DNA from: Candidatus Harrisonbacteria bacterium
Lineage (GTDB): Bacteria; Patescibacteriota; Minisyncoccia; UBA6257; UBA11618
Assembly: GCA_016867415.1 (NCBI GenBank)
Contig: VGJO01000002.1
Coordinates: 118,472 to 182,471 of the forward strand
Reading direction: 5' to 3'
Length of the DNA: 64,000 nucleotides
In this document: positions 3,880-63,017 of the stretch, in pieces
How positions within the stretch are numbered: position 1 is the stretch's first letter
How the letters are laid out: each line of letters starts with the position of its first letter
Translations under genes and position numbers: made by a program
The notes under the pieces: model-generated
Database searches by the model: none
What the model was told of the DNA's origin: nothing
What the model saw: the letters and a program-made list of their open reading frames with translations, nothing else

Positions 3880-4067
3880 ATGAGCCTCCACTAGCAATAA
3901 TAGGCTTTAAAAGAAAAAATAAAAACTTCATTAAAGAATGAATAAAATAAGATAAAGCGAGCGAAAGAAAGAGAGGCTTGCGAGGAGGTATGCTGGGCTA
4001 ATGTATGTCGACGAGCAAACAGAATTTTCGACAAAGTCAGAGGAAAAAGAAAAGCGCCAAAAAACAA
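3880..4067 (+). repeat. Degenerate family A-like element, copy R0, abutting smc stop codon; starts with GAGCCTCCAC motif
   Basis: aggtatgctgggctaatgtatgtcgacgagc resembles R8 core cagcatactgggctaagtctgtgagg; 3' end gaaaagcgccaaaaaacaat directly precedes tta (smc stop). Confidence 0.5.
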
Positions 4068-16387: not shown

Positions 16388-16528
16388 ACGTTACACGTCG
16401 TCAAGCGCAGGATTTTTGGATGGAGTTTGCGATTTCTTTCCGAGGAGCCGCCGCAGCGTACTAAGAGCTAGGTACGTGAGGAGGCACCGCAGGAAAAAAT
16501 CGCAAAATCCGCCAAAAAGACCAGCTCG
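16388..16528 (+). repeat. Family A intergenic repeat, copy R3 (abuts dnaE stop codon)
   Basis: gcgcaggatttttggatggagtttgcgatttctttccgag...cagcgtactaagagctaggtacgtgagg...gaaaaaatcgcaaaatccgccaaaaag; last base 16528, dnaE stop 16529-16531. Confidence 0.75.
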
Positions 16529-19500
16529 TTAAATAGATTTTATCTTCTCGAGTATAAATTTTGGTTCTCCGTTCCTATGACTCATTCGGCCTGAGGCGAG
16601 AATGATTCTCCCCTCCGCCCATTCAAAATTCTTATACTCCTCCACCGTCCGAGGAAATACAATCATCTCGAGTGAATCCCGCGCATCATTCAAGTTTACA
16701 AACATCATCGACTGATTATTCTTGGTAAGAATCTTTTTCACACTTGTCATGAGCCCCGCCACCGCAAAACTCGCCTTCTCATTTGTGACTCCCATCGCGT
16801 CCCTGAGTGTCCGCGCCGTAAGTTTCCCCCGATACGGATTAAACGGATGATCCGAGATATAAAGGCCGAGAAGCTCCTTCTCCCACTCGAGCTTCTGCTT
16901 CACACTCGCGGGTGCTACCTCCTTGAGCTTCAACTGCCCCTTAAACTCATCCTTCATTCCAAAAAGTGATCCCGCCGCCTTCTTCTTATACTCCCTGAGT
17001 AGCTGGCTATACCGCAAAATCTCATCCAAATTTTCATTCGCCATATTCCGCTCGACGCCGAGAGAATCAAAAACTCCGCACTTCACGAGCGCCTCAAGCG
17101 ACTTTTTATTAAGATCCCGATGCTCAATCCGGTTCAAAATATCCCGCATTGTCTTATATGCTCCCCCTCGTCCCCGCTCCTCAATCAAAAGCTTTACGAT
17201 ATTTTCCCCCACATTTTTAATCGCGAGGAGTCCAAATCGAATCTCCAGCTTCTCAGGATACGGTGCAAACTCCACCTCGCTCTCATTGATATCCGGCGGC
17301 AACACTTTGATCCGCATCTTCCGACATTCCTCCACAAGAAACGCCACCCGCTCAATATCCCCCGCATCGTTATTTAAGAGTGCCGTCATAAATTCCACGG
17401 GATAATGCGCCCGCAAATATGCTGTCTGATAGCCAATAAAGGCATAGCAGACCGCGTGCGATTTATTAAATCCATATCGCGCAAACGGTGGAAAGAGCTC
17501 CCAGATCTGGACCGCAATATGATCCGGAATTCCGTTTTCAATCATTCCTTTTGTGAGCTTCTCCCGCTGTTCTTCCAAAAGTGCCTTAATCTTTTTCCCG
17601 ATTGCCTTGCGAAGCGTATCCGCCTCAGCGAGCGTATAGCCGGCGAGATCCCGCGCGATTCGCATCATCTGCTCCTGATAGAGACCGATCCCATACGTGT
17701 CCCGCATGATTGGCTCGAGTCCCGGATGCAAATAGGTCGTCTCCTCTCGCCCATGCTTTCTCGCGATAAACGATGGGATAAGATCCATCGGCCCCGGCCG
17801 ATACGCGGCGACCAATGCCACCAGGTCATCGAGCCGTGTGGGTTGGAGCTCCTTCATATACCGCCGCATACCCGACGATTCAAATTGAAAGACTCCCGTC
17901 GTCTCCCCCCGCTGGAGCATCTCATATGTCTCTGGGTCATCAAGCGGCAAAGTATTAATGTCCACATGCCCCTTTCCGTTTTCTTTAATCAGTCGCACTG
18001 TCTCCTCCATGATCGATAAATTTTTCAGTCCTAAGATATCCATCTTAAGAAGTCCTAGAGACTCAATCGCATGCATTTCAAATTGAGTGATAATCGCCGA
18101 TTCATCCTGTGGCGCATACTGAAGCGGTACATAGTGTGAAAGCGGCTTATCCCCGATCACGATGCCGCAGGCATGCACAGACGCGTGCCGCGTGAGTCCC
18201 TCGAGCTTCCGGGACGCATCGATGATCTGCTTTGCGTCCGCCTCTTTTTCATAGAGCTCTTTGAGCTCTGGCACCGTATCCATCGCCGTCTCCAAGTCCT
18301 CATTAAATGGGATTAGTTTTGCCACCCGATCGCAAAAGCCATAGCTCACTCCAAGCGCTCGCCCCGCATCCCGCACCGCCGCCCGCGCTGCCATCGTCCC
18401 AAAAGTGATAATATTAGCCACTTGATCCTTCCCATATTTATCCCGCAGATATTGCACCACTCGATCCCGCCCCTTATCCGCGATATCGGTATCGATATCC
18501 GGCATTTGAATACGATCGGGGTTTAAAAACCGTTCAAAAAGCAAATCATATTTCAATGGATCCACGTTCGTGATCCCAGTGATATACGCCACGATCGATC
18601 CGGCCGCCGAGCCTCTCCCTGGTCCCACGATGATCCCTTGGCTCCGCGCCCAAGCTATAAAATCCTGCACGATAAGAAAATATGCCGGATACCCCATCCG
18701 CTCGATGACCGAGAGCTCATACTCCACCCGATCTAGCACTATTTTATTTGGCTCCGCCCCATACCGTGTTGGCAGTCGCCCTTCTACAATTTTTCTCAAG
18801 TATGTCGCCGCTGTCTCATCTTCAGGCAAGGGAAATTTGGGCAAAATGGTTTTCCCCAGTTCCAACGTTACCTTGCATCGCTCCGCGATTTTTCCCGTGT
18901 TCTCAATCGCCTCCGGCAAATCGACAAAACATTCCCGCATCATGGCCTCACTCCTCATGGAGAAATCATCCATCCGCATGCCGCCTGCCTTCCCTGCAAT
19001 CTTTCTTGGCCCCTGAGCCTCTCCCTCCACATTACCGCTATGCAGCTTATTGCTCATCTGCACCGCGAGCAGTATCTCATGATATGGCGCATCCTCCTTC
19101 TTCTTATAGTGCACGTCCTGTGTGGCAACCAGTGGCGCCCCGATCTCCTTGCTTATCCAAAGCAACCCCGCCCGCACTCGCTCATGATCTTCTGGAAAAC
19201 ATTTCGGGTGATGCGACACTTCAATAAAATAATTATCTTTGCCAAAAATATTCTGATGGCGCTTCGCCGCCTCCAATGCCTCCTCCCGCTTCCCCAATAG
19301 CAAGTTGCGAATCACCTCGCCCGAATAGCATCCCGAGAGCGCAATCAGCCCCTCGTGATACTCTGAAAGGAGCTCCATATCCATCCGCGGCTTATAATAA
19401 AAACCCTCAAGATTCGCCCGAGTAGTCAGCTGAATCAAATTTTTCCACCCTGTCTCGTTTTCGCAAAGAAGCGTGAGGTGATAGTACTTATTATCCACTC

Positions 19501-23339: not shown

Positions 23340-23675
23340 CCAGATTAAATCTAGAATCTATATAAATAAAAAGCTTGAGCGATAGCAAAAGCTCACCTAA
23401 GGTGTAAACCTTCGTTTCATAAAAACGAAGAAATCAATCTTTGATTAAAAAAAGTCGGAGACTTTTTACTCCCTCCTCCACTACTCACGCCACCCAATCT
23501 CTCTACTACCAAAGAAACTTTTATCTTCTCCTAAAATGACCATCCACAGAAAAATGGCATGGTTTTTTTATGGTAATGCTTTTTCTTCTTCTGTCCTCAA
23601 CGGATTGCCATAAAAAAAATTTTCAAGGACAGAAGAAAAAGCCGCTGGGCTTTTTATGGGTCACGGAAGGAAAAG
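23340..23675 (+). repeat. Family B composite repeat, near-full copy B1
   Basis: ataaataaaaagc...cttcgtttcataaaaacgaag...aaaaaagtcggagacttttt...ccaaagaaactttt...atgaccatccacagaaaaatggcatggttttttt...ttttcaaggacagaag...gggtcacggaagg. Confidence 0.65.
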
Positions 23676-23701
23676 AGAAAGTTTCTAAAAAACAATAAGC
23701 T

Positions 23702-26416: not shown

Positions 26417-26553
26417 ATCCAGCACAGATGTAAGTGAAGTAATTTTGGAGGATTTTTCGATTTTCTTTTCGAGCAGGCATCGGAGCATACTGCGGGAAGT
26501 ATGTGAGAAGCCAGCGCATAAAAAAAATCGAAAAAGACCCAAAAGTACAAGCG
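26417..26553 (+). repeat. Family A intergenic repeat, copy R4 (abuts nusG stop codon)
   Basis: aagtgaagtaattttggaggatttttcgattttcttttcgagcaggcatcggagcatactgcgggaagtatgtgagaagccagcgcataaaaaaaatcgaaaaagacccaaaagtacaagcg; nusG stop 26554-26556. Confidence 0.8.
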
Positions 26554-27135
26554 TTAAACCTTTTGGACTTGGAGGGAGTCCAGCTCTAAATCCGTTTCCC
26601 GTCCGAAAATCTGCACCGCCACCTTCACTCTTCCTCTCTCCTTATCCACTCCCATCACCTTGCCATCATAATCCTTAAAGGGACCATCAATAATCTTCAC
26701 TAAATCATTCTCATTAAGATCAATGGTAAATTCCTGATCTTCCCTTCCCATTCGCGCAAGCAGGGCATCTACCTCGTGCTTGGAAAGTGGTACAGGTCGA
26801 GTCGTCTCCGGTCCTACAAAGCGAGTCACTCTCGGCGTATTCCGTACCACGTACCAAGTATCTTCATTCATGATCATGTCCACCAAGACATATCCTGGAT
26901 AAATTTTCTCTTCAATCACTCGCCGCTTACCATTCTTCACTTTGATTTTTTTCTCCTTTGGCACTACTACGGAAAAAATCCGATCTTCCATGGAAAGAGA
27001 TCCTACCCGCTGATCAAGATAACGCTTCACCGCATCTTCATAGCCAGAGTAAGTATGCACTGCATACCAATGTCGCTCACCCGAAAGCTTCCCTCCCTCG
27101 ACTATATTTCCTCCCTTCTCTTTATTGTCTTCCAT
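26554..27135 (-). CDS. nusG: Transcription termination/antitermination factor NusG
   Basis: 193 aa; NGN domain HWYAVHTYSGYEDAV; KOW motif near C-terminus; secE-nusG-rplK synteny. Confidence 0.9.
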   Translation of the reverse strand: MEDNKEKGGNIVEGGKLSGERHWYAVHTYSGYEDAVKRYLDQRVGSLSMEDRIFSVVVPKEKKIKVKNGKRRVIEEKIYPGYVLVDMIMNEDTWYVVRNTPRVTRFVGPETTRPVPLSKHEVDALLARMGREDQEFTIDLNENDLVKIIDGPFKDYDGKVMGVDKERGRVKVAVQIFGRETDLELDSLQVQKV

Positions 27136-29292: not shown

Positions 29293-29417
29293 AGATATAA
29301 ATAAGTAACTTAATTATAGCAAAAAAAAGAAGGCTCCACCACCCCCTTTTATTCTCTAAAAAACACTCATTCTAACCAGCGTAAGTAAAGTATTTTTGCT
29401 TTGTCCGCCGTAGCCTC

Positions 29418-29517
29418 TGGCGAAGGAGGAGAATTTTTCGATTTTCTTTCAAAAAAGCCAGGGTAAAGCGGAGAGAACGTGATAGTTTGTACTCAAACTA
29501 TCACGTTCTACAAGCGC
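29418..29517 (+). repeat. Family A variant, copy R5 (alternative central palindrome)
   Basis: ggaggagaatttttcgattttctttc shared with family A; central perfect palindrome gaacgtgatagttt-gtactc-aaactatcacgttc; ends ctacaagcgc 8 nt before the stop of 29526..29873. Confidence 0.5.
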
Positions 29518-29525
29518 TTTTCCTT

Positions 29526-29873
29526 TTACATTTGGCAAGCCAAAAAAGCGCACTGTCTATCACTCGTCACGCCTTTAATCTTATTCCCCCCATTATCAAA
29601 ACACCCAAGGTCCGGCTCCACTCCCGTCGCTACATTTTTATTTCCCCAACCAAACGCTCGAGTCGGATTATTATCACACTCTCGCACAATAAGCGTCTTC
29701 TGATCCAATCCTTCTGAAGCCTGTACTCGCTTCTCCTCCGAATCACTGAAATACACCTGAGTATAAATAATATAAAGACCTACCGCCACCAAAAACAAAA
29801 ACCAAAAATCTCTCCGGTGGGAAGAAAAAAACGACCCTTTATTACCCTTATCGCTTCCTTTTTTCTTTTTCAT
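29526..29873 (-). CDS. Small membrane-anchored hypothetical protein
   Basis: 115 aa; KKKKGSDKGNKG then TM WFLFLVAVGLYIIY; 4 Cys in C-terminal part. Confidence 0.45.
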   Translation of the reverse strand: MKKKKGSDKGNKGSFFSSHRRDFWFLFLVAVGLYIIYTQVYFSDSEEKRVQASEGLDQKTLIVRECDNNPTRAFGWGNKNVATGVEPDLGCFDNGGNKIKGVTSDRQCAFLACQM

Positions 29874-34669: not shown

Positions 34670-34812
34670 GCGACCTTCTGCAGAAAAGAAGCTTGGCTTT
34701 TTTGTGATATGCTTTTGTCTAGTTTTCTATCCTCAAAGGCATACCACAAAAAATTCTTTTCGAAGCCTGAATGAGAGCTCGCAGGAGCTTTCATGTGTCG
34801 TAATAAGGATAT
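34670..34812 (+). repeat. Family B repeat, 3' module copy B4
   Basis: gaccttctgcagaaaag...ttttttgtgatatgcttttg...cataccacaaaaaattcttttcgaagcctgaatgagagctcgcaggagctttcatgtgtc. Confidence 0.6.
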
Positions 34813-34907: not shown

Positions 34908-34958
34908 ATACTGAAAATTAACCTCCTAATTATATAAAGTTTTTAGAAAAAAGACAAG

Positions 34959-35747: not shown

Positions 35748-35882
35748 CCTCAGTTCCATGAAGTAATTTTGAATAAAGTTTCGCGATTCTTTCCGAAGAG
35801 CCAAGGAAGCACTACTAAGAGCTGAGTATGTGAAGAGGTGCCATAGAAAAAACCGCGAAAATTCTCCAAAAGTACGAGCGCC
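35748..35882 (+). repeat. Family A intergenic repeat, copy R6 (abuts mrdA stop codon)
   Basis: gaagtaattttgaataaagtttcgcgattctttccgaag...ctgagtatgtgaag...gaaaaaaccgcgaaaattctccaaaagtacgagcgcc; mrdA stop 35883-35885. Confidence 0.75.
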
Positions 35883-40359: not shown

Positions 40360-40592
40360 TGCATAAAAAAGTCCCCGACTTTTTACTCACCCCGTCTACC
40401 CTACCATCCTCACCTAATTCTAGCATCACCAAGAAATATTTCTCTCCCTTGAGTGACCATCCGCAGAAAAGTGGCATGGTTTTTTTGTGTTGTTATTTTG
40501 TCTTCCCTGCCCTCAAAAGAACAACACAAAAAACACTTTTCGAGGAAAGAATAAAAAATTCGCAGGAATTTTTTATGCGTCACGAAGAGGAG
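40360..40592 (+). repeat. Family B composite repeat, copy B2
   Basis: aaaagtccccgactttttactcacc...ccaagaaatattt...gagtgaccatccgcagaaaagtggcatggtttttttgtgttgttattttg...caacacaaaaaacacttttcgagg...atgcgtcacgaag. Confidence 0.65.
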
Positions 40593-40623: not shown

Positions 40624-41823
40624 TTATCCAAAAACCCTCTTAATCATTTCTTCCTCCCCCACCACCTCACTCTTTGCTCTTCCTCTTTTCTTAATCTCCA
40701 CCTCCCCCTCTGGTACCCGATCCGAGATCACTATTCTATAAGGGCACCCGATCATATCCGCATCCACAAATTTTACTCCCGCCGGCTCCTCCCGGTCATC
40801 AAAAAGCACTTCATGTCCCTGAACTATTAATTTTTCATACAAATCCTTTGCTCGCTCCCGCGTCTTCTCCTCCTTCCCAAGCACCAAAAGATGTGCTTGA
40901 AACGGCGCCACGGCCTCCGGCCAGACGATCCCCTGCTCATCATGAGACACCTCGACAATCGTCCCTAAGACTCGTGTCGGCCCGATCCCATACGACGCCA
41001 TAAAAAACTTTTCTGAAAATCGCTTCCCTAGTCGGAAAATATTTCCCACCTCAATCGCCTTTTTCTCCTCTATCTTTCCCTTACTGCACTGCGGACACTG
41101 CTCTCCCGCGCCCACCTTAGCAATCTCTTTGTTCTGGCAAAAGCCACACCCCGCTTCGCAGACATAGATAAGATCCTCTCCCGACTCCGCCACCACCTGA
41201 AACTCATGTGTGTAGTCTTTAGTAAAATCCCCTCCCGAAGCTTCGCAGACAAGCGCCTGAAGGCCTACTCGCGCAAATACTCGCTTGTACGCCTCTGCCA
41301 CCACCTCGTAGTATGCGCGCATATCCGCCTCTGTCGCATGAAAACTATATAAGTCCTTCATGAGAAATTCCCGTCCGCGCAAAATACCGCTCTTCGCCCG
41401 CGCCTCTTTCCGAAACTTAGTCTGGATCTGATATACTGCCCTCGGCAAAAACTTTTCCGCCACCAAATATTTCTCGCCAATCTCTGCGATTACCTCCTCG
41501 TGCGTCCAGCCGAGTCCATATTCCTCTCCATCCGCCCCAGTAAGCTTGTAGACTACAGGCACTTCCCACCGTCCCGACTGCTCCCAAATTCGCTTCGGGA
41601 TCAAAGCCGGCATCGAGAGCTCCTCCGCTCCCACGCCATTCATCTCCTCTCGGATAATCGCATTGATTTTATGTAGTACTCGCTGCCCAAGAGGCAAAAG
41701 CGTATACACCCCTGCCGCCGTTTTTGACAGAAAGCCAGCCCGGATCAAATACCGCGCATTGATAGCCTCCTCATCCTTAGGCCACTGATCTAAGACCCGC
41801 GCAAACTGCCTAGACTGTAACAT
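40624..41823 (-). CDS. proS: Prolyl-tRNA synthetase, minimal form without editing insertion (probable)
   Basis: 399 aa; class II motif 2 RGREFLMKDLYSFH; WEQSGRWE; Cys-rich insertion CEAGCGFCQN...CPQC; C-terminal anticodon-binding domain. Confidence 0.6.
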   Translation of the reverse strand: MLQSRQFARVLDQWPKDEEAINARYLIRAGFLSKTAAGVYTLLPLGQRVLHKINAIIREEMNGVGAEELSMPALIPKRIWEQSGRWEVPVVYKLTGADGEEYGLGWTHEEVIAEIGEKYLVAEKFLPRAVYQIQTKFRKEARAKSGILRGREFLMKDLYSFHATEADMRAYYEVVAEAYKRVFARVGLQALVCEASGGDFTKDYTHEFQVVAESGEDLIYVCEAGCGFCQNKEIAKVGAGEQCPQCSKGKIEEKKAIEVGNIFRLGKRFSEKFFMASYGIGPTRVLGTIVEVSHDEQGIVWPEAVAPFQAHLLVLGKEEKTRERAKDLYEKLIVQGHEVLFDDREEPAGVKFVDADMIGCPYRIVISDRVPEGEVEIKKRGRAKSEVVGEEEMIKRVFG

Positions 41824-47505: not shown

Positions 47506-48939
47506 TTAAGGGAATTGATGCAAAAAATCAAAAAAGTGGTAGATGGCAGGTGGCAGTATCGGTAGTAATGATTGCAGTAATAGTAGTGATAATGCAGGTG
47601 CAGGTGCAGGTGCAGGTGTAGGTGCAGGTGTAGGTGCAGGTGTAGGTGTAGATGTAGGTTCAGGTGTAGGTGTAGGTGTAGGAGTAGGTGTAGGAGTAGG
47701 TGTAGGAGTAGGAGGAGGAGCAGGAGGAGGAGCAGGAGGAGGAGGAGGAGGTGGAGGAGGAGGAGGAGGAGGTGGAGGTGGAGGTGGAGGTGGAGGTGGA
47801 GGAGGAGGTGGAGGTGGAGGTGGAGGTGGAGGAGGAGTAAGTTCAGTTGCATGAGGAGGTTCAGGTGTAGGTTCAGGTGTAGGTTCAAGTGTAGGTGAGC
47901 CGTCTACTAGGGCGCCGCCATCGCCGCCATTGCCGCGATTGCCGCCATCGCCACCATTGCCACCATTGCCACCATTGCCGCCATTGCCGCCATTGCCGCG
48001 ATTGCCGCCATTGCCGCCATCGCCGCCATTGCCGCCATCGCCTGTATTGCCTGTATTGTCTGTATTGCCTGTGAATCCAGTCAACTTTGAAATTTCATTT
48101 AATATTAGTTTACGTTCATCAGAATCTCTCAAAAATTTTTCGGCTATTTTTTCAATTTTCGCTTCTATTTCGGCTTGGCTTTTTGGTGACCAAGATTCAA
48201 TAGCGGCAGGCAAAGAACTGGCTTCAATAAAACTATCATTGATGAATACTGGCACTTCTTCTCTCCTTGATTCTCCTCCATACGCTTGGGCTGTTAACCT
48301 CCCCATTTCATTGTTCTTATTCGAAGCAAATCCCCGTTTCCATCCCAATTTTTGCTCTATCCATCTGACCACCCACTGCTCAAAGGATTCGGCCGCTGCC
48401 GCATTCGCCTGCAAGCTTGCGAATCGGACACCCACCGAATAACTCCCGAAAGTATAGTGGTAAAAAAACAATGTATCTTCATTTGTATCCGGATTAATTC
48501 CATTTTTCCCGTTTTGTGGATCAATCGGCAAAGCATCAATCTGAATCCCAGGAATCTGCCGAAAATCAATTGGTAGCCAACCACTTCCATCAATCTGCGT
48601 AAGTCGCTCTTTTGGCACACATCGGTAATCATACCCCTCCGCTAATTGAAGCAAACCCCGATCTCTCCAATAGCCACAAGTCGGATCATCATCTGGTAAG
48701 GAAACATAGACAAGCCGCCGCTCCCCTAAAAGAGCATATTGAGCCTGCTCATCTATAAAGCTAATAAGTTGAGAAAGAAACTTAAGATCTTTATTGCGTT
48801 GCCGATCTACCTGAAAACGAAAAAATTCCAAAGGATTAATCGTCACCGAAAATACCCCTGCAATAAGAAAAAAAGACACCCCGATAAGCAAGGCTTTCAC
48901 CGGAAAAGATAAACGCTCGAGCCTCTGCATGAGCTCCAT
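47506..48939 (-). CDS. Membrane-anchored/secreted hypothetical protein with GN-rich, poly-Pro (34 P) and (TP)n tail
   Basis: 477 aa; N-terminal TM ALLIGVSFFLIAGVF; ~300-aa globular region; then GNGGNGGDGG repeats, P34 run, TPTPTP repeats, hydrophobic C-terminus. Confidence 0.65.
   Translation of the reverse strand: MELMQRLERLSFPVKALLIGVSFFLIAGVFSVTINPLEFFRFQVDRQRNKDLKFLSQLISFIDEQAQYALLGERRLVYVSLPDDDPTCGYWRDRGLLQLAEGYDYRCVPKERLTQIDGSGWLPIDFRQIPGIQIDALPIDPQNGKNGINPDTNEDTLFFYHYTFGSYSVGVRFASLQANAAAAESFEQWVVRWIEQKLGWKRGFASNKNNEMGRLTAQAYGGESRREEVPVFINDSFIEASSLPAAIESWSPKSQAEIEAKIEKIAEKFLRDSDERKLILNEISKLTGFTGNTDNTGNTGDGGNGGDGGNGGNRGNGGNGGNGGNGGNGGDGGNRGNGGDGGALVDGSPTLEPTPEPTPEPPHATELTPPPPPPPPPPPPPPPPPPPPPPPPPPPPPPPPPPAPPPAPPPTPTPTPTPTPTPTPTPEPTSTPTPAPTPAPTPAPAPAPALSLLLLQSLLPILPPAIYHFFDFLHQFP
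47594..48062. repeat. Coding simple-sequence repeats (hexamer ggtgca/ggtgta, trimer gga/ggt, nonamer gccgccatt)
   Basis: Visible runs caggtgcaggtgcaggtgtagg..., ggaggaggaggtggaggtgg..., gccattgccgccattgccgcgattgcc... Confidence 0.9.
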
Positions 48940-50583: not shown

Positions 50584-50805
50584 ACGCTAGCACCCAGCAT
50601 AAGCGAAGTAATTTTGAGCTTATTTTCGTTCTTCTTTTCTAAAAAGGTACCGGAGCATACTACAGGAAGTATGTGAGGAACGTTTTTAGAAAAAAGGATG
50701 AGCCTCCACTACTACTAGATAAACAAAGAAAAAGAAGAAACAGAATAATCAGTAGAAGAGAGATAAGGTCGGCTACACGAGCGAAAGAAGCCAAAAATAC
50801 GAGCG
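50584..50805 (+). repeat. Family A repeat copy R7 carrying a ~100-nt nested insertion (GAGCCTCCAC motif)
   Basis: acgctagcacccagcataagcgaagtaattttgag...ggagcatactacaggaagtatgtgagg... then atgagcctccactactactag...aatcagtagaag... then gccaaaaatacgagcg; rpoA stop 50812-50814. Confidence 0.7.
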
Positions 50806-50811
50806 TTCTCT

Positions 50812-51573
50812 TTACTTCTTTTTTTCTTTCTTCGAAGAAGAAACCGAAGAAGATGTAATTTCAAAGAGAGAAATCTTTTGGAAGTGTTCTTGGAGCACCG
50901 TACACGCCTTGTGCAATGCCTCCGAAGGACTCGTCGAACCATCCGTCTCAATCTGAATCAAGACTTTATTATAGTCTGTCCGATCCCCTACCCGCATGTT
51001 CTGCACGGTAAAATTAGCCTTAATAATCGGAGAAAAAATTGCATCCAAGACAATCACCCCCACTGGCAGCTTTTCAGTCTTCATTGATTCCGCAGTTCGA
51101 TAACCCAAGCCATTTTCTACGGTAATTTCCATATCAAGCTCCGCTGATTTATTCGACAATTGAGCGATATGCGCCTCCGGATTAATCACTTCGACTTCGG
51201 AATTAACCTTTATGTCCCCTGCAGTCACTTCCTTTTCTCCTTTTACTTTAAGAGATAAGACCTGTGGCTCTTCCGAATGAAGCGTAAATCGAATTTTCTT
51301 AAGATTAAGCAAAAGCTCTACCACATCCTCTACCATGCCTGGTAAAGTAGAAAACTCATGATTAACATCCTTTAACTTTATTCGGGTAATCGCCGCGCCC
51401 TTCAAAGAAGAATAAAGTACTCGCCGCAAAGCGCTACCAATCGTAATCCCATATCCGGTATAGAGGCCTTCAATCTCAAACTCACCCGTAGTGGCCGTCT
51501 CTTTGACCTTTTTTATCTGTAATGCCTCGGAAATATTTGTTATTTTCATGTATTCTGAATCCTTATAGAGCAA
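50812..51573 (-). CDS. rpoA: DNA-directed RNA polymerase alpha subunit, N-terminal domain only (253 aa)
   Basis: alpha-NTD motifs GYGITIGSALRRVLYSSL, TRIKLKDVNHEFSTLPG; ends in SSSVSSSKKEKKK without a recognisable alpha-CTD. Confidence 0.85.
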   Translation of the reverse strand: MLYKDSEYMKITNISEALQIKKVKETATTGEFEIEGLYTGYGITIGSALRRVLYSSLKGAAITRIKLKDVNHEFSTLPGMVEDVVELLLNLKKIRFTLHSEEPQVLSLKVKGEKEVTAGDIKVNSEVEVINPEAHIAQLSNKSAELDMEITVENGLGYRTAESMKTEKLPVGVIVLDAIFSPIIKANFTVQNMRVGDRTDYNKVLIQIETDGSTSPSEALHKACTVLQEHFQKISLFEITSSSVSSSKKEKKK

Positions 51574-56640: not shown

Positions 56641-56780
56641 AACAGCGAATAACGTAAGCGAAGTAATTTTGGATGGAGTTTGCGATTTCTTTTCGAGCAG
56701 GCACCGCAGCATACTGGGCTAAGTCTGTGAGGAGCCAGCGGAGAAAAAAATCGCAAAATCCGCCAAAATTACAAGCACCC
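56641..56780 (+). repeat. Family A intergenic repeat, copy R8 (ends 2 nt before rpmB stop codon)
   Basis: aacgtaagcgaagtaattttggatggagtttgcgatttcttttcgagcaggcaccgcagcatactgggctaagtctgtgaggagccagcggagaaaaaaatcgcaaaatccgccaaaattacaagcaccc. Confidence 0.8.
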
Positions 56781-56782
56781 AG

Positions 56783-56971
56783 CTACTTGGTAGACTTAAC
56801 AGAAGTCCGCATGCATTGAGTACACAACAAACCCCTACTTCCATCAGGCAAAGTTCCCTTCTGTAAATTCGGCTGCTTTCTCGTCCAATTCACCGGATTA
56901 TAATGGCCGCGCAAGAGCTTTCTCGCCCCCACCATTCGCGATCCTTTTTTACACACTGCACACTGTCTCAT
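56783..56971 (-). CDS. rpmB: 50S ribosomal protein L28
   Basis: 62 aa; CAVCKKGSRMVGARKL..GHYNP..TRKQPNLQK matches L28 family pattern. Confidence 0.75.
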   Translation of the reverse strand: MRQCAVCKKGSRMVGARKLLRGHYNPVNWTRKQPNLQKGTLPDGSRGLLCTQCMRTSVKSTK

Positions 56972-57269: not shown

Positions 57270-57590
57270 AAAGTCTTTGACTTTTTGCTCACCCCTCCAC
57301 TCTCTCCTCTCTTTATTACATCTCAATCTCTGCGCCAGCAAAGAACTCTACCTTTCCCGTGAGTGACCTTCTGCAGGACGAGCTTCCACAAAGAAAAATA
57401 TTCTTTAAAGAAAAAAACAAAAGCATCAGTATAAAAAGACTAAAACAAGATAAAGTCAGCGAGGCATGGTTTTTTCATGGTGTTATTTTTTCTTCTTCTT
57501 TCCCAAAAATAACACCATGAAAAATTTTCTCCGAAGCCTGAATGAAAGCTCGCAGGAGCTTTCATGTGTCACGAAGGGGAAAGGTGGGGT
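57270..57590 (+). repeat. Family B composite repeat, copy B3
   Basis: aaaaagtctttgactttttgctcacc...gtgaccttctgcag...catggtgttatttttt...aaaataacaccatg...gcctgaatgaaagctcgcaggagctttcatgtgtcacgaagg. Confidence 0.7.
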
Positions 57591-57644
57591 TCTTCTAAAA
57601 GATAAAAAGTACTGGATTCCAGCTCGGGGGCCGGAATGACAAGC

Positions 57645-59464: not shown

Positions 59465-59770
59465 ACATGTCGGATCCGCGAAGTAATTTTGGAGGATTTT
59501 TCGATTTTCTTTCCGAGTATGAGCCTCCACTACTAAAAGATAGTCTTATGCAATATAAAAACAATAGAATCAGTAGTGAAAATCAGAAAGAGGAACGATG
59601 AGCACAAGAGAGTATATCGAAGGCGATTAGTACTCTAATCGCCTGAAGATCCCGAGTACTCTTGGGGCAATCCATTCTGTGAGTACCGAGCACAGAAAAA
59701 AAATGAAAAGGAGCCTCCACAAGCAATAGTAGAAAATTAGAAAAGGTCAGCGACCCAAAATTACGAACAC
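59465..59770 (+). repeat. Family A repeat copy R9 split by a ~215-nt nested insertion bounded by GAGCCTCCAC-type repeats; abuts stop of 59771..61051
   Basis: gcgaagtaattttggaggatttttcgattttctttccgagt | atgagcctccactactaaaag...ggagcctccacaagcaatagtag | ...cagcgacccaaaattacgaacac followed by cta (stop, minus). Confidence 0.65.
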
Positions 59771-61051
59771 CTAAAAAGAATCAAAGAGCCACGCTTCTAC
59801 TCGCACATCTGGGAAAGTCAACTTCCTATCCTTTACTACCTCCAAAATATTCTCAATCCTCTCTCGTTGATCCGGATTCTCTATCTTAAGCCTCTCAAAT
59901 TCCTTTATATATACCCGCTCTGAATTATTCGGGGTGGTAAGAAATAAAAGCGTCTGAAAAAGGACAGCTACCGCCCGATTCGCTTCGAAAAGCGCCTGCT
60001 CCGGCTGATTATTTTTAAGAAATAGATCTGCCTGATCAAGGAAAAATTGTACCTGATCAATATTCTTTTTCATTGCTCCTTCCGTATCCCACTTCTCTGC
60101 CACCTTTAGCATTTCTCGAGAAAAACGAACGGCCCTAAGCTCCACCTTTTTTATCTCAATTGGCGCTCCAATCATTTTAATGATTTCAAGATTAAGACTA
60201 TCAAAAGTAGCTCGCTCAGCCTCAGAGACCCTGGCCCGAATTGCCACGAGAGCTTGCAGTTTCAAAAGCGGATCAAGATTAGCGGAAAGGAAAAGATTCT
60301 GTTCCTCCCGAGCAATCTTCAAAGCCCGATTAAGATAGCTAAGCATTTCCTCCGAAAGTCGTAAGAGCTCATATTGGTCAGCTGAGCTAAGGCCCGGCTG
60401 AATTGCCGCATCAATAAAAAAATTAAAAGCCGTTACTGCAAGCACCGGATTCGCTTCTTCTAAAAAAAAGACTCGATATTTCTCGCGCACGGTCTCCCCC
60501 GTCGTTCCTAAATCAAAGATAGCTTTAAGAAGCGCCTGCTTCTCTTTTAGCACTACCTCTCCCAAAGGGAGATTAGAAAAAACATCCACATTGGAGTAGC
60601 TAAGATCTAAGGCCTTTGCCTGGATAGCCGGCGAATATGACCTCTGTTTCAGAGCGGCAAACTTCGGCTGAAATGCTCTAAACTGATCTGCATACTGTCG
60701 CACCGCCACTCCCACTGCCTCGCTCCCTTCTGACATGATACCCGAAAGTTTCGTGACCTCCGCCTCCTTGTCTCTTAAGATCGAAAGCTCAAGCAAATTA
60801 CGCTTTTCATCCGAAAAAGTCGTCGCTCGGCGAATCCCCCGTCCCCACTCCTTAAAAAAGTAAAAAGGATTAGAGGGTAAAAGCCCCTCATCCCCCGGGG
60901 CTGCAAAGGTCGAGCCAGAAAAAACTAGAAGACACCCCAAAACAAGCAATGTCTGCTTTAAAATATTTGTAGTAAACTGACGTATACTCATGTGAGTTTT
61001 TATTATATCATATCCACCACAAAAATCAAGGAAAATCCCCCATTTTTTCAT
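59771..61051 (-). CDS. Secreted hypothetical protein
   Basis: 426 aa; signal peptide LLVLGCLLVFSGSTFAAPG; largely helical-looking, no known motif. Confidence 0.5.
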   Translation of the reverse strand: MKKWGIFLDFCGGYDIIKTHMSIRQFTTNILKQTLLVLGCLLVFSGSTFAAPGDEGLLPSNPFYFFKEWGRGIRRATTFSDEKRNLLELSILRDKEAEVTKLSGIMSEGSEAVGVAVRQYADQFRAFQPKFAALKQRSYSPAIQAKALDLSYSNVDVFSNLPLGEVVLKEKQALLKAIFDLGTTGETVREKYRVFFLEEANPVLAVTAFNFFIDAAIQPGLSSADQYELLRLSEEMLSYLNRALKIAREEQNLFLSANLDPLLKLQALVAIRARVSEAERATFDSLNLEIIKMIGAPIEIKKVELRAVRFSREMLKVAEKWDTEGAMKKNIDQVQFFLDQADLFLKNNQPEQALFEANRAVAVLFQTLLFLTTPNNSERVYIKEFERLKIENPDQRERIENILEVVKDRKLTFPDVRVEAWLFDSF

Positions 61052-62819: not shown

Positions 62820-63017
62820 TATGCTAGTCTACATCCTCTTTGTCAAACATATTGCAATAAAAAATAATCTTATTTAGCAGAAAGTTTTCCGAGGATTTTT
62901 TCCGAATGGCTAGGCGCCTTTGAGCATTGCGACCAAGATGTACATAGAGGAAGTACTTCGCGGGAGCAAGCGGAGAAGGCAACAACGCCATTCGGAAAAA
63001 AGACCGAAAACTATAAA

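Follow-up and report, generated by a model that had tools for sequence, protein, structure and literature searches.

A foldback repeat behind stop codons in a Candidatus Harrisonbacteria population is oriented by replication strand

A 64,000-nucleotide (nt) stretch of contig VGJO01000002.1 from a Candidatus Harrisonbacteria bacterium (positions 118,472 to 182,471; hereafter the window) carries a dispersed repeat of ~125-150 nt, here called family A, one member of which lies at 16388-16531 behind dnaE. In 23 of the 23 copies that were counted, the sense strand of the repeat is on the G-rich (leading) strand, and the orientation of the element tracks the replication strand, not the gene, a feature overlooked by an earlier sequence-only reading of the window. 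It is proposed, with somewhat more confidence than doubt, that family A is a lineage-specific, high-copy, non-autonomous mobile foldback repeat of the kind represented by miniature inverted-repeat transposable elements (MITEs), REPINs and PATEs, which inserts strand-specifically 3' of stop codons. The observation from which that reading started, the adjacency of copies and stop codons, is real and statistically strong, and the selfish-element interpretation that it offered among others is broadly right.

Repeats in the window were detected by a direct-repeat search and by alignments, and then with R1, a covariance model built from six family A copies, with which the window was scanned on both strands. 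The 23 copies comprise 11 in the 64-kb window, 2 in the next 8.8 kb and 10 on other contigs of the same Lake Tanganyika population (L015, L017, L019, L023 and L027); the parts examined of contig Ga0194121_10000271 are L041, L023 and L027. The window copies are listed in Table 1 together with those copies from elsewhere that do not follow a gene. Upstream genes are named from Pfam in the cases of rplL, rplJ, smc, dnaE, nusG, mrdA and rpoA; greA on L023 was identified by its translated N-terminus only, and rpmB, the name that the earlier reading gave to the open reading frame (ORF) 56783-56971, is that reading's label only, the ORF being outside the Pfam scan.

Table 1. Family A and family B elements. 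Coordinates without a contig name refer to the window.
Element	Location	Strand or orientation	Basis or detail
Intact copy after rplL	611-735	minus	R1 130 bits; fold z -4.5
Intact copy, rplJ-rplL spacer	1158-1281	minus	R1 119 bits
Decayed relic after smc stop	~3950-4067	minus	by eye; no R1 match up to E = 10
Intact copy after dnaE	16402-16527	minus	R1 133.6 bits; RNA fold -55 kcal/mol, z -5.6
Intact copy right after nusG stop, 99 nt ahead of rplK	26431-26554	minus	R1 135 bits
Rearranged, decayed copy after ORF 29526-29873	29385-29519	minus	by eye on sequence
Intact copy 1 nt past mrdA stop, 91 nt ahead of tpiA	35755-35881	minus	R1 118.5 bits
Composite copy after rpoA stop	50600-50808	minus	R1 54.9 bits for 50600-50721; alignment
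Intact copy after ORF 56783-56971	56655-56778	minus	R1 138 bits
Composite copy directly after ORF 59771-61051 stop	59475-59770	minus	alignment; 3'-arm pattern 59482-59516; R1 16 bits
Diverged variant after dnaG stop	62876-63017	minus	R1 20.9 bits; TTTTCGG...CCGAAAA hairpin
Copy between two minus-strand genes	L017 6732-6855	opposite to the genes	5' end 11 nt from start codon
Copy antisense to flanking genes	L017 3641-3730	antisense	5' end 24 nt from start codon
Copy beside divergent putative greA	L023 418-575		begins 10 nt from greA start
Copy beside divergent ftsX	L027 8188-8311		begins 13 nt from ftsX start
Copy beside divergent tRNA-Thr gene	L015 3959-4082		begins 3 nt from 5' end of tRNA gene
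Family B	23556-23660	same polarity as family A
Family B	34689-34800	same polarity as family A
Family B	40458-40580	same polarity as family A
Family B	57456-57590	same polarity as family A
Family B	L019 9497-9612	same polarity as family A

Strand polarity of family A

The window holds six intact copies, two composite copies, two decayed ones and one diverged variant, all on the minus strand. With R1 the intact copies score 118-138 bits on the minus strand versus 19-47 bits on the plus strand, so that their orientation can be assigned with confidence. Within the window this orientation is uninformative because 54 of the 56 protein genes are on the minus strand as well; the claim that copies always share the orientation of their upstream genes holds there and fails outside, where copies antisense to the flanking genes occur.

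The two replication strands differ very strongly in base composition. Read along the coding sequence, GC skew at third codon positions (GC3 skew) is +0.57 in the minus-strand genes of the window but -0.55 in its two plus-strand genes, thrS and mreB, and these opposite values indicate that the skew marks the DNA strand and not the coding sense. Leading strands are usually G-rich; the G-rich minus strand and the gene-strand bias together identify the minus strand of the window as the leading strand. Five independent contigs show the same polarity of family A, which also holds within a block of lagging-strand genes. On Ga0194121_10000271, the plus strand of which is C-rich on average (skew turns slightly positive in a few stretches of 2 kb at the far end of L041), every copy is on the minus strand, while the genes are on the minus strand in L027 and on the plus strand in the leuS block (L041, L039), a run of at least 11 consecutive lagging-strand genes from recO to htrA with GC3 skews of -0.2 to -0.55. 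A co-oriented copy follows the stop codon of 18 of the 84 leading-strand genes versus none of the 23 lagging-strand genes (Fisher p = 0.011). The leading strand carries ~95% of the protein genes in the window and ~79% over all loci counted, and the apparent co-orientation with genes is thus a consequence of a fixed replication polarity combined with the placement of most genes on the leading strand.

Position relative to stop codons and gene boundaries

For the positional test the element was placed at random within each spacer, and the gaps to the stop codon and to the next gene were measured. In the window the first model position lies between -3 and +14 nt from the stop codon, and 32 to ~390 nt separate the element from the next gene; the combined p for random placement is 9e-8 for ten window copies and 8e-13 for 21 copies. 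Median gaps are 1 nt on the 5' side and 92 nt on the 3' side, the 5' gap being the smaller one in 20 of 21 copies. The 3' spacers of eight copies cluster between 84 and 101 nt. An all-against-all blastn-short comparison of the 3' spacers found no common sequence, indicating that the 90-nt spacer is not a conserved part of family A. Canonical terminators are present downstream of some copies, for example at 29350-29325 and past the copy at 56655-56778, which implies that harmless sites further from the stop codon were available and left unused. About one fifth of the intergenic junctions of the window are occupied by family A.

The stop codons themselves are native. NusG, DnaE and the product of ORF 29526-29873 have C-termini within one codon of the ends of their orthologs (DnaE aligns to the last residue of its ortholog), and RplL ends in VELK, the usual end of L7/L12; the element therefore sits after the native stop codon and does not replace it. 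In ~16 of 19 copies the 5' homology follows TA, and in ~11 of 19 the 3' homology closes with CTTA; a K-T-A-R motif is found within a few nt of the 5' end in ~14 of 19 copies with varying offset, and G/T-T-A-A/G often stands ahead of the hairpin foot. A search for target-site duplications revealed no copy-specific direct repeat, the 3' TA being inside the conserved CTTA(C), and there is no empty site that can be aligned with a filled one; short TAA, TAG and TAAC matches in some 3' flanks (dnaE, rplL) are inconsistent and no more than AT-rich DNA would give by chance.

The sequence-only reading had every copy abutting the stop codon of an upstream gene. This stands for the window copies and breaks down outside, where seven of 12 copies follow a co-oriented ORF at -7 to +9 nt (two in the adjoining 8.8 kb, three on L027 and one each on L019 and L015) and the remaining five do not follow a gene, two of them being antisense and three lying in divergent spacers. 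Even so, the 5' ends of these five stand close against a gene boundary, be it a start codon or the end of a tRNA gene (combined p = 0.018). Two of the divergent genes deserve mention on their own account: ftsX (junction at L027 8311-8325) and the putative greA (junction at L023 575-586) start 10-13 nt from the 5' end of the copy and show no Shine-Dalgarno sequence; either their promoter or 5' untranslated region (UTR) must be in or beyond the element, or their mRNAs must be leaderless.

Hairpin structure

Each copy forms a single long imperfect hairpin. The six intact copies that were folded have energies of -29 to -55 kcal/mol and, in five of six, z-scores of -3.2 to -6.8; the fold of the mrdA copy is not significant (z -1.6, with 14 of 200 shuffles equally stable). 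An alignment of 17 sequences gives 38 consensus pairs that are 90% paired, 16 of them changed on both sides, and the covariation score is 0.32, versus 0.13 for shuffled sequences and a mean of 0.11 (0.05-0.12) with slid partners. The terminal inverted repeats pair GTAC-TTTTGG with CCAAAA-TTAC and covary between subfamilies (GGTC...TCC type), while the apical half consists of conserved helices of 2-3 bp between single pyrimidine-pyrimidine mismatches (conserved T-T, T-C). Beyond the hairpin, some copies have a common 3' tail of 12-25 nt. Directly after the 3' foot stands ACUUCGCUUAC and there is no U-tract, as the sequence-only reading had correctly seen, and an intrinsic Rho-independent terminator was rejected as a candidate on this ground.

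The two strands do not differ in the way expected of an RNA element. At the model pairs the sense strand has 24 G-U pairs versus 18 A-C mismatches. Folding with RNA parameters favours the antisense strand in 9 of 13 copies, and folding with DNA parameters does so in 15 of 17 (Wilcoxon p = 0.0014 for the latter comparison, in which the copies are related and thus not independent). The hairpin shows no sign of selection in the mRNA sense. Rfam contains no family that family A matches at the gathering threshold, only tRNAs and the L10 leader passing it in the window, and a permissive Rfam scan of one copy returned only miRNA-like noise (E = 0.2-0.7).

Occurrence in relatives and metagenomes

Besides being dispersed, family A is mosaic: its subfamilies recombine terminus types and mid-stem types, and alignment reveals nested insertions in two copies. 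The NusG of the window, which NCBI assigns to a Candidatus Harrisonbacteria bacterium MAG, occurs in Lake Tanganyika metagenomes, and the next-best NusG reaches no more than 72-76% identity. A look-up of RplL, aimed at extending the window to the left, returned no recorded protein. With a 35-nt degenerate pattern of the 3' arm, 185,579 species-representative genomes yielded four chance matches and no true copy; the same kind of scan over metagenomes gave 17 loci, with R1-confirmed copies from Lake Tanganyika contigs only, whereas none of 34 pattern matches in viral contigs was confirmed by R1 and plasmids gave no match. Three relatives keep the gene order pheS-pheT-hyp-gyrB-secE-nusG-rplK, with NusG proteins 72-76% identical to that of the window. 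Their nusG-rplK spacers measure 39, 11 and 48 nt versus 222 nt here, and no R1 match was found in 49.5 kb of their sequence. The comparison of orthologous loci that had been suggested for the repeat thus turned up spacers without a copy in all three, which points to a recent lineage-specific expansion and not to an ancient regulatory element.

A practical consequence was seen in independent assemblies of the population with the same nusG (L003, L004 and L006-L009), which end 57-100 nt after this gene, inside the repeat, indicating that family A fragments metagenome assemblies.

Proposed mode of insertion and alternative explanations

The strict polarity, the abutment of the 5' end on T-A-R, the lack of a visible duplication and the asymmetric 3' tail lead us to propose a geometry like that of the single-strand 'peel-and-paste' transposition carried out by HUH Y1 enzymes (the TnpA of IS200/IS605, or RAYTs). 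Integration would occur in one polarity, with the sense strand on the G-rich strand, which is the leading-strand sequence and the template of lagging-strand synthesis. The 5' end would land a few bases 3' of T-A-R, usually the native stop codon of a leading-strand gene; that is, the left end would be joined 3' of a short motif on the template of lagging-strand synthesis, without duplication of the target. As a safe T-A-R on the G-rich strand of a gene-dense genome would chiefly be a leading-strand stop codon, the pattern would arise without any link to expression. Mobility itself, a single-stranded DNA (ssDNA) mechanism and the T-A-R target are what we infer from these features. The earlier suggestion of a selfish element that prefers stop codons fits much better than that of an RNA element: family A is dispersed, lineage-specific and mosaic, has nested insertions and begins 0-8 nt past native stop codons of conserved position; T-A-R is its putative target motif.

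Several points weigh against this proposal. The distance from the stop triplet to the TTTTGG block of the hairpin foot is 6-14 nt, a variation of several bases, and either integration is not base-precise or the junctions have drifted since. At the five copies that do not follow a gene, T-A-R is not above chance (a base-frequency estimate, p ~0.2), and two of the five are without the motif. No transposase was found among the Pfam-annotated genes of ~130 kb from the population, and Pfam and NCBIfam scans of the hypothetical ORFs near copies revealed no transposase or recombinase. No strain-level polymorphism of filled versus empty sites was found. The architecture, a single end-to-end foldback, is that of a MITE with terminal inverted repeats (TIRs) and not that of two subterminal hairpins. 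Finally, the decisive cases for polarity are few, namely two copies in the lagging-strand block and three in divergent spacers.

The last but one of these points leads to a serious rival, a TIR-type MITE mobilised by a DDE transposase of the IS630 or IS5 kind with TA or YTAR as its target. The polarity of such a MITE would have come from later selection on hairpin stability, for example because an orientation with the weaker hairpin on the lagging-strand template would suffer fewer deletions or stalled forks. Family A has the end-to-end foldback form and the size of ERIC or Correia elements, with TA ahead of its 5' end and CTTA at its 3' end at the frequencies given above, which would suit this origin, and of the two ssDNA hairpins the sense one is the weaker in 15 of 17 copies. 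However, no target-site duplication has been demonstrated, the 3' TA is within the conserved element and is followed in some copies by the tail of 12-25 nt, and TA/YTAR sites are abundant in the 90-nt AT-rich spacers, yet the copy stands at the stop codon. We know of no DDE-mobilised MITE for which complete polarity (23/23 here) has been described. All in all, we consider a DDE-mobilised origin possible but doubtful.

With about the same reserve we mention an extension of the ssDNA proposal, in which family A would be a new class of foldback element that is mobilised as a single strand and uses stop codons on the lagging-strand template as integration sites, spreading through a minimal genome with its genes left intact. 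More boldly, the strictly polar hairpins may have been co-opted as lagging-strand signals, for example in priming.

A 3'-UTR or intercistronic RNA element that protects mRNA 3' ends, is processed by RNase III or modulates translation termination, an option that the sequence-only reading had offered alongside the selfish one, appears unlikely. Most copies are necessarily transcribed in the sense direction, for instance within the rplJ-rplL operon; the stop codon adjoins or falls within the foot of a long hairpin with covarying pairs, and the 5' gap is very tight. Reportedly, a REP within ~15 nt of the stop codon affects translation termination in E. coli (Liang, Rudd and Deutscher in 2015). Nevertheless, as a cause of the pattern this explanation is not supported: the two strands fold about equally well, with no asymmetry favouring the mRNA sense, the spacers of the three syntenic relatives lack the element, two copies are antisense to both flanking genes and three lie beside divergent starts or a tRNA gene. 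None of the 23 lagging-strand genes has a co-oriented copy, and the genome tolerates decayed or interrupted copies behind essential genes, smc and rpoA among them. Side effects on mRNA are compatible with the data, which argue against a dedicated 3'-UTR function; effects on stability, RNase III cleavage or ribosome stalling at a stop codon in the hairpin foot would be a consequence of the landing site, not its cause.

Still less probable is a host-domesticated signal on the lagging-strand template, serving in priming or primosome assembly (ssi/PAS-like) or as a mark of replication direction. Strict replication-strand polarity and a conserved ssDNA hairpin with pyrimidine-pyrimidine mismatches would suit it, but relatives lack the element, copies decay or are interrupted without replacement, their spacing is irregular, and nothing ties the element to replication proteins. 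An unconventional transcription terminator replacing the hairpin-plus-U-tract type can practically be dismissed, in spite of the very stable hairpin directly after genes, because it has no U-tract and also occurs antisense, canonical hairpin-plus-U terminators are present in the window at ~2x the shuffled expectation, some just past a copy, and strong termination is incompatible with the copy between rplJ and rplL, which are normally co-transcribed as one operon.

If the polarity and the stop-codon abutment do reflect the insertion mechanism, family A would be a selfish sequence that multiplies in a gene-dense genome by means of the one short motif certain to border every gene, and it would provide a natural setting in which the transposition of a full-length foldback as ssDNA could be studied. 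The genomes of candidate phyla radiation (CPR) bacteria, or Patescibacteria, are small. The replication-strand polarity is a new and testable point. For annotation, the family is a warning against taking every conserved structured element found behind stop codons for a regulatory RNA.

Comparison with known repeat families

Family A belongs to the broad class of small non-autonomous bacterial palindromic repeats that includes ERIC, Correia, RUP, REP/REPIN and PATE (PMC2229807). Bacterial MITEs typically end in 5'-TA-3' (PMC2229807). ERIC/IRU (127 bp) and Correia/NEMIS elements resemble family A in being imperfect end-to-end palindromes of ~105-155 bp with TA termini, and they share with it the AT-richness, the intergenic location, the co-transcription with neighbouring genes and the many dispersed copies (PMC2229807). 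There is no sequence similarity between them and family A. These elements occur in both orientations and make TA duplications; in family A no duplication was found, all copies have a single replication-strand polarity, and the 5' end is set against a stop codon.

Transposition of the IS200/IS605 family and of PATEs by the Y1 HUH enzyme TnpA is strand-specific, with the active strand on the lagging-strand template; the left end goes in 3' of a specific target of 4-5 nt, and no target duplication results (PMC5027513). The polarity of family A, the abutment of its 5' end on T-A-R and the lack of a detectable duplication match these three points. Family A differs from IS200/IS605 in several respects: those elements have separate subterminal hairpins at their left and right ends whereas family A is one 125-nt foldback, as judged by covariation; its junction offset varies; and no tnpA or tnpB was found in the sequence at hand.

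For recognition by TnpA-REP, a REP needs a mismatch in its stem, and a conserved GTAG stands 5' of the foot of its hairpin (PMC3333891). REP, BIME and REPIN sequences are, like family A, high-copy extragenic palindromes that are often located just past stop codons. REPIN doublets form hairpins of ~100 nt. However, the REP unit is only 20-40 nt long and BIMEs and REPINs occur in both orientations, in contrast to family A, which has strict polarity and arms that are not palindromic themselves. No RAYT gene was seen in the ~130 kb of population sequence.

Integron attC sites are imperfect hairpins of 57-141 nt that directly follow each cassette ORF in one orientation and are recombined as a folded single strand, with a role for the direction in which they are replicated. 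As a candidate they were rejected: RYYYAAC is present in just two copies, as chance would have it, the 3' end has no GTTRRRY, and the flanking genes are housekeeping genes; unlike attC, family A has neither R''/R' core sites nor an integrase, and its copies are scattered, not arrayed. An assignment to RPE, which the sequence-only reading had entertained, was likewise considered and rejected. Of each specific family that was tested, family A lacks one or more defining features, and it combines a foldback architecture with a polarity like that of IS200/IS605. Full-text literature searches found no paper describing MITE-like repeats in CPR bacteria, and we know of no account of repeats in CPR/Patescibacteria.

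Individual copies and other repeats in the window

The ten loci listed in the sequence-only reading were recognised as family A. Those behind smc and ORF 29526-29873 proved to be decayed relics, and the copy behind dnaG had been missed. The range 16388-16531 given there for the dnaE locus consists of the copy proper plus the dnaE stop codon (16529-16531) and a 14-nt 3' tail; the copy begins 1 nt past this stop and, as ssDNA, folds at -31.6 in the sense and -35.0 in the antisense strand. At rplL the stop codon TAG (733-735) overlaps the first model positions of the copy, and a tRNA-Val gene is located 89 nt downstream. The copy at 1158-1281 lies inside the L10-L7/L12 operon, 14 nt past the rplJ stop and 32 nt ahead of the rplL start, with the L10 leader (RF00557, Rfam) upstream at 1859-1987. 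The copy at 56655-56778 starts 4 nt past the stop of its ORF and has a tRNA-Pro gene 120 nt downstream.

Among the imperfect copies, the smc relic still has a recognisable 5' block, apical loop motif and 3' block, with arms that no longer pair, and the rearranged copy at 29385-29519 begins 6-8 nt past the stop of ORF 29526-29873 and is followed by the canonical, terminator-like hairpin at 29350-29325. The dnaG variant, 56 nt ahead of rpoD, is 84% identical (blastn) to L027 2794-2927, and the proteins encoded upstream of the two are unrelated. In the rpoA composite an insertion of ~85 nt in the 5' arm, containing AGTGGAGGCTCAT, splits the 5' terminus from the remainder; the composite at 59475-59770 has an insertion of ~170 nt in the 5' arm, also with AGTGGAGGCTCAT.

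This module occurs four times in the window versus 0.14 times expected (3880-3892, 50698-50710, 59519-59531 and 59709-59721), within the 5' arms of both composite copies and beside the smc relic, and represents a small element of a third kind that is nested within family A or, alternatively, a long A subfamily. The stop codons of tpiA (TAG CTTGTCTTTTTT, 34945-34958), alaS (TAA GCTTGTC, 57635-57644) and gatB (TAA AGCTTATTGTTTTTT, 23685-23701) are followed by a sequence like the 5' terminus of family A without a hairpin; these may be deletion relics. RpoA (50812-51573) has only 253 aa and no match to the alpha C-terminal domain, and the gap between rpoA, with the composite repeat directly after it, and the next gene is too small for a separate C-terminal domain.

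A second repeat, family B, is ~150 nt long and forms two hairpins in which stem differences are compensated; it has no Rfam match, and its single-stranded motifs CGTGAC...ACCATGCC...GGATGGTCA are conserved. Its copies in the window lie 36-150 nt past gatB, tRNA-Met, ORF 40624-41823 and alaS. ORF 47506-48939 (477 aa), for which Pfam gave no match, contains long tandem arrays of 12-nt and 9-nt units at 47578-48084, with a GGN-rich plus strand.

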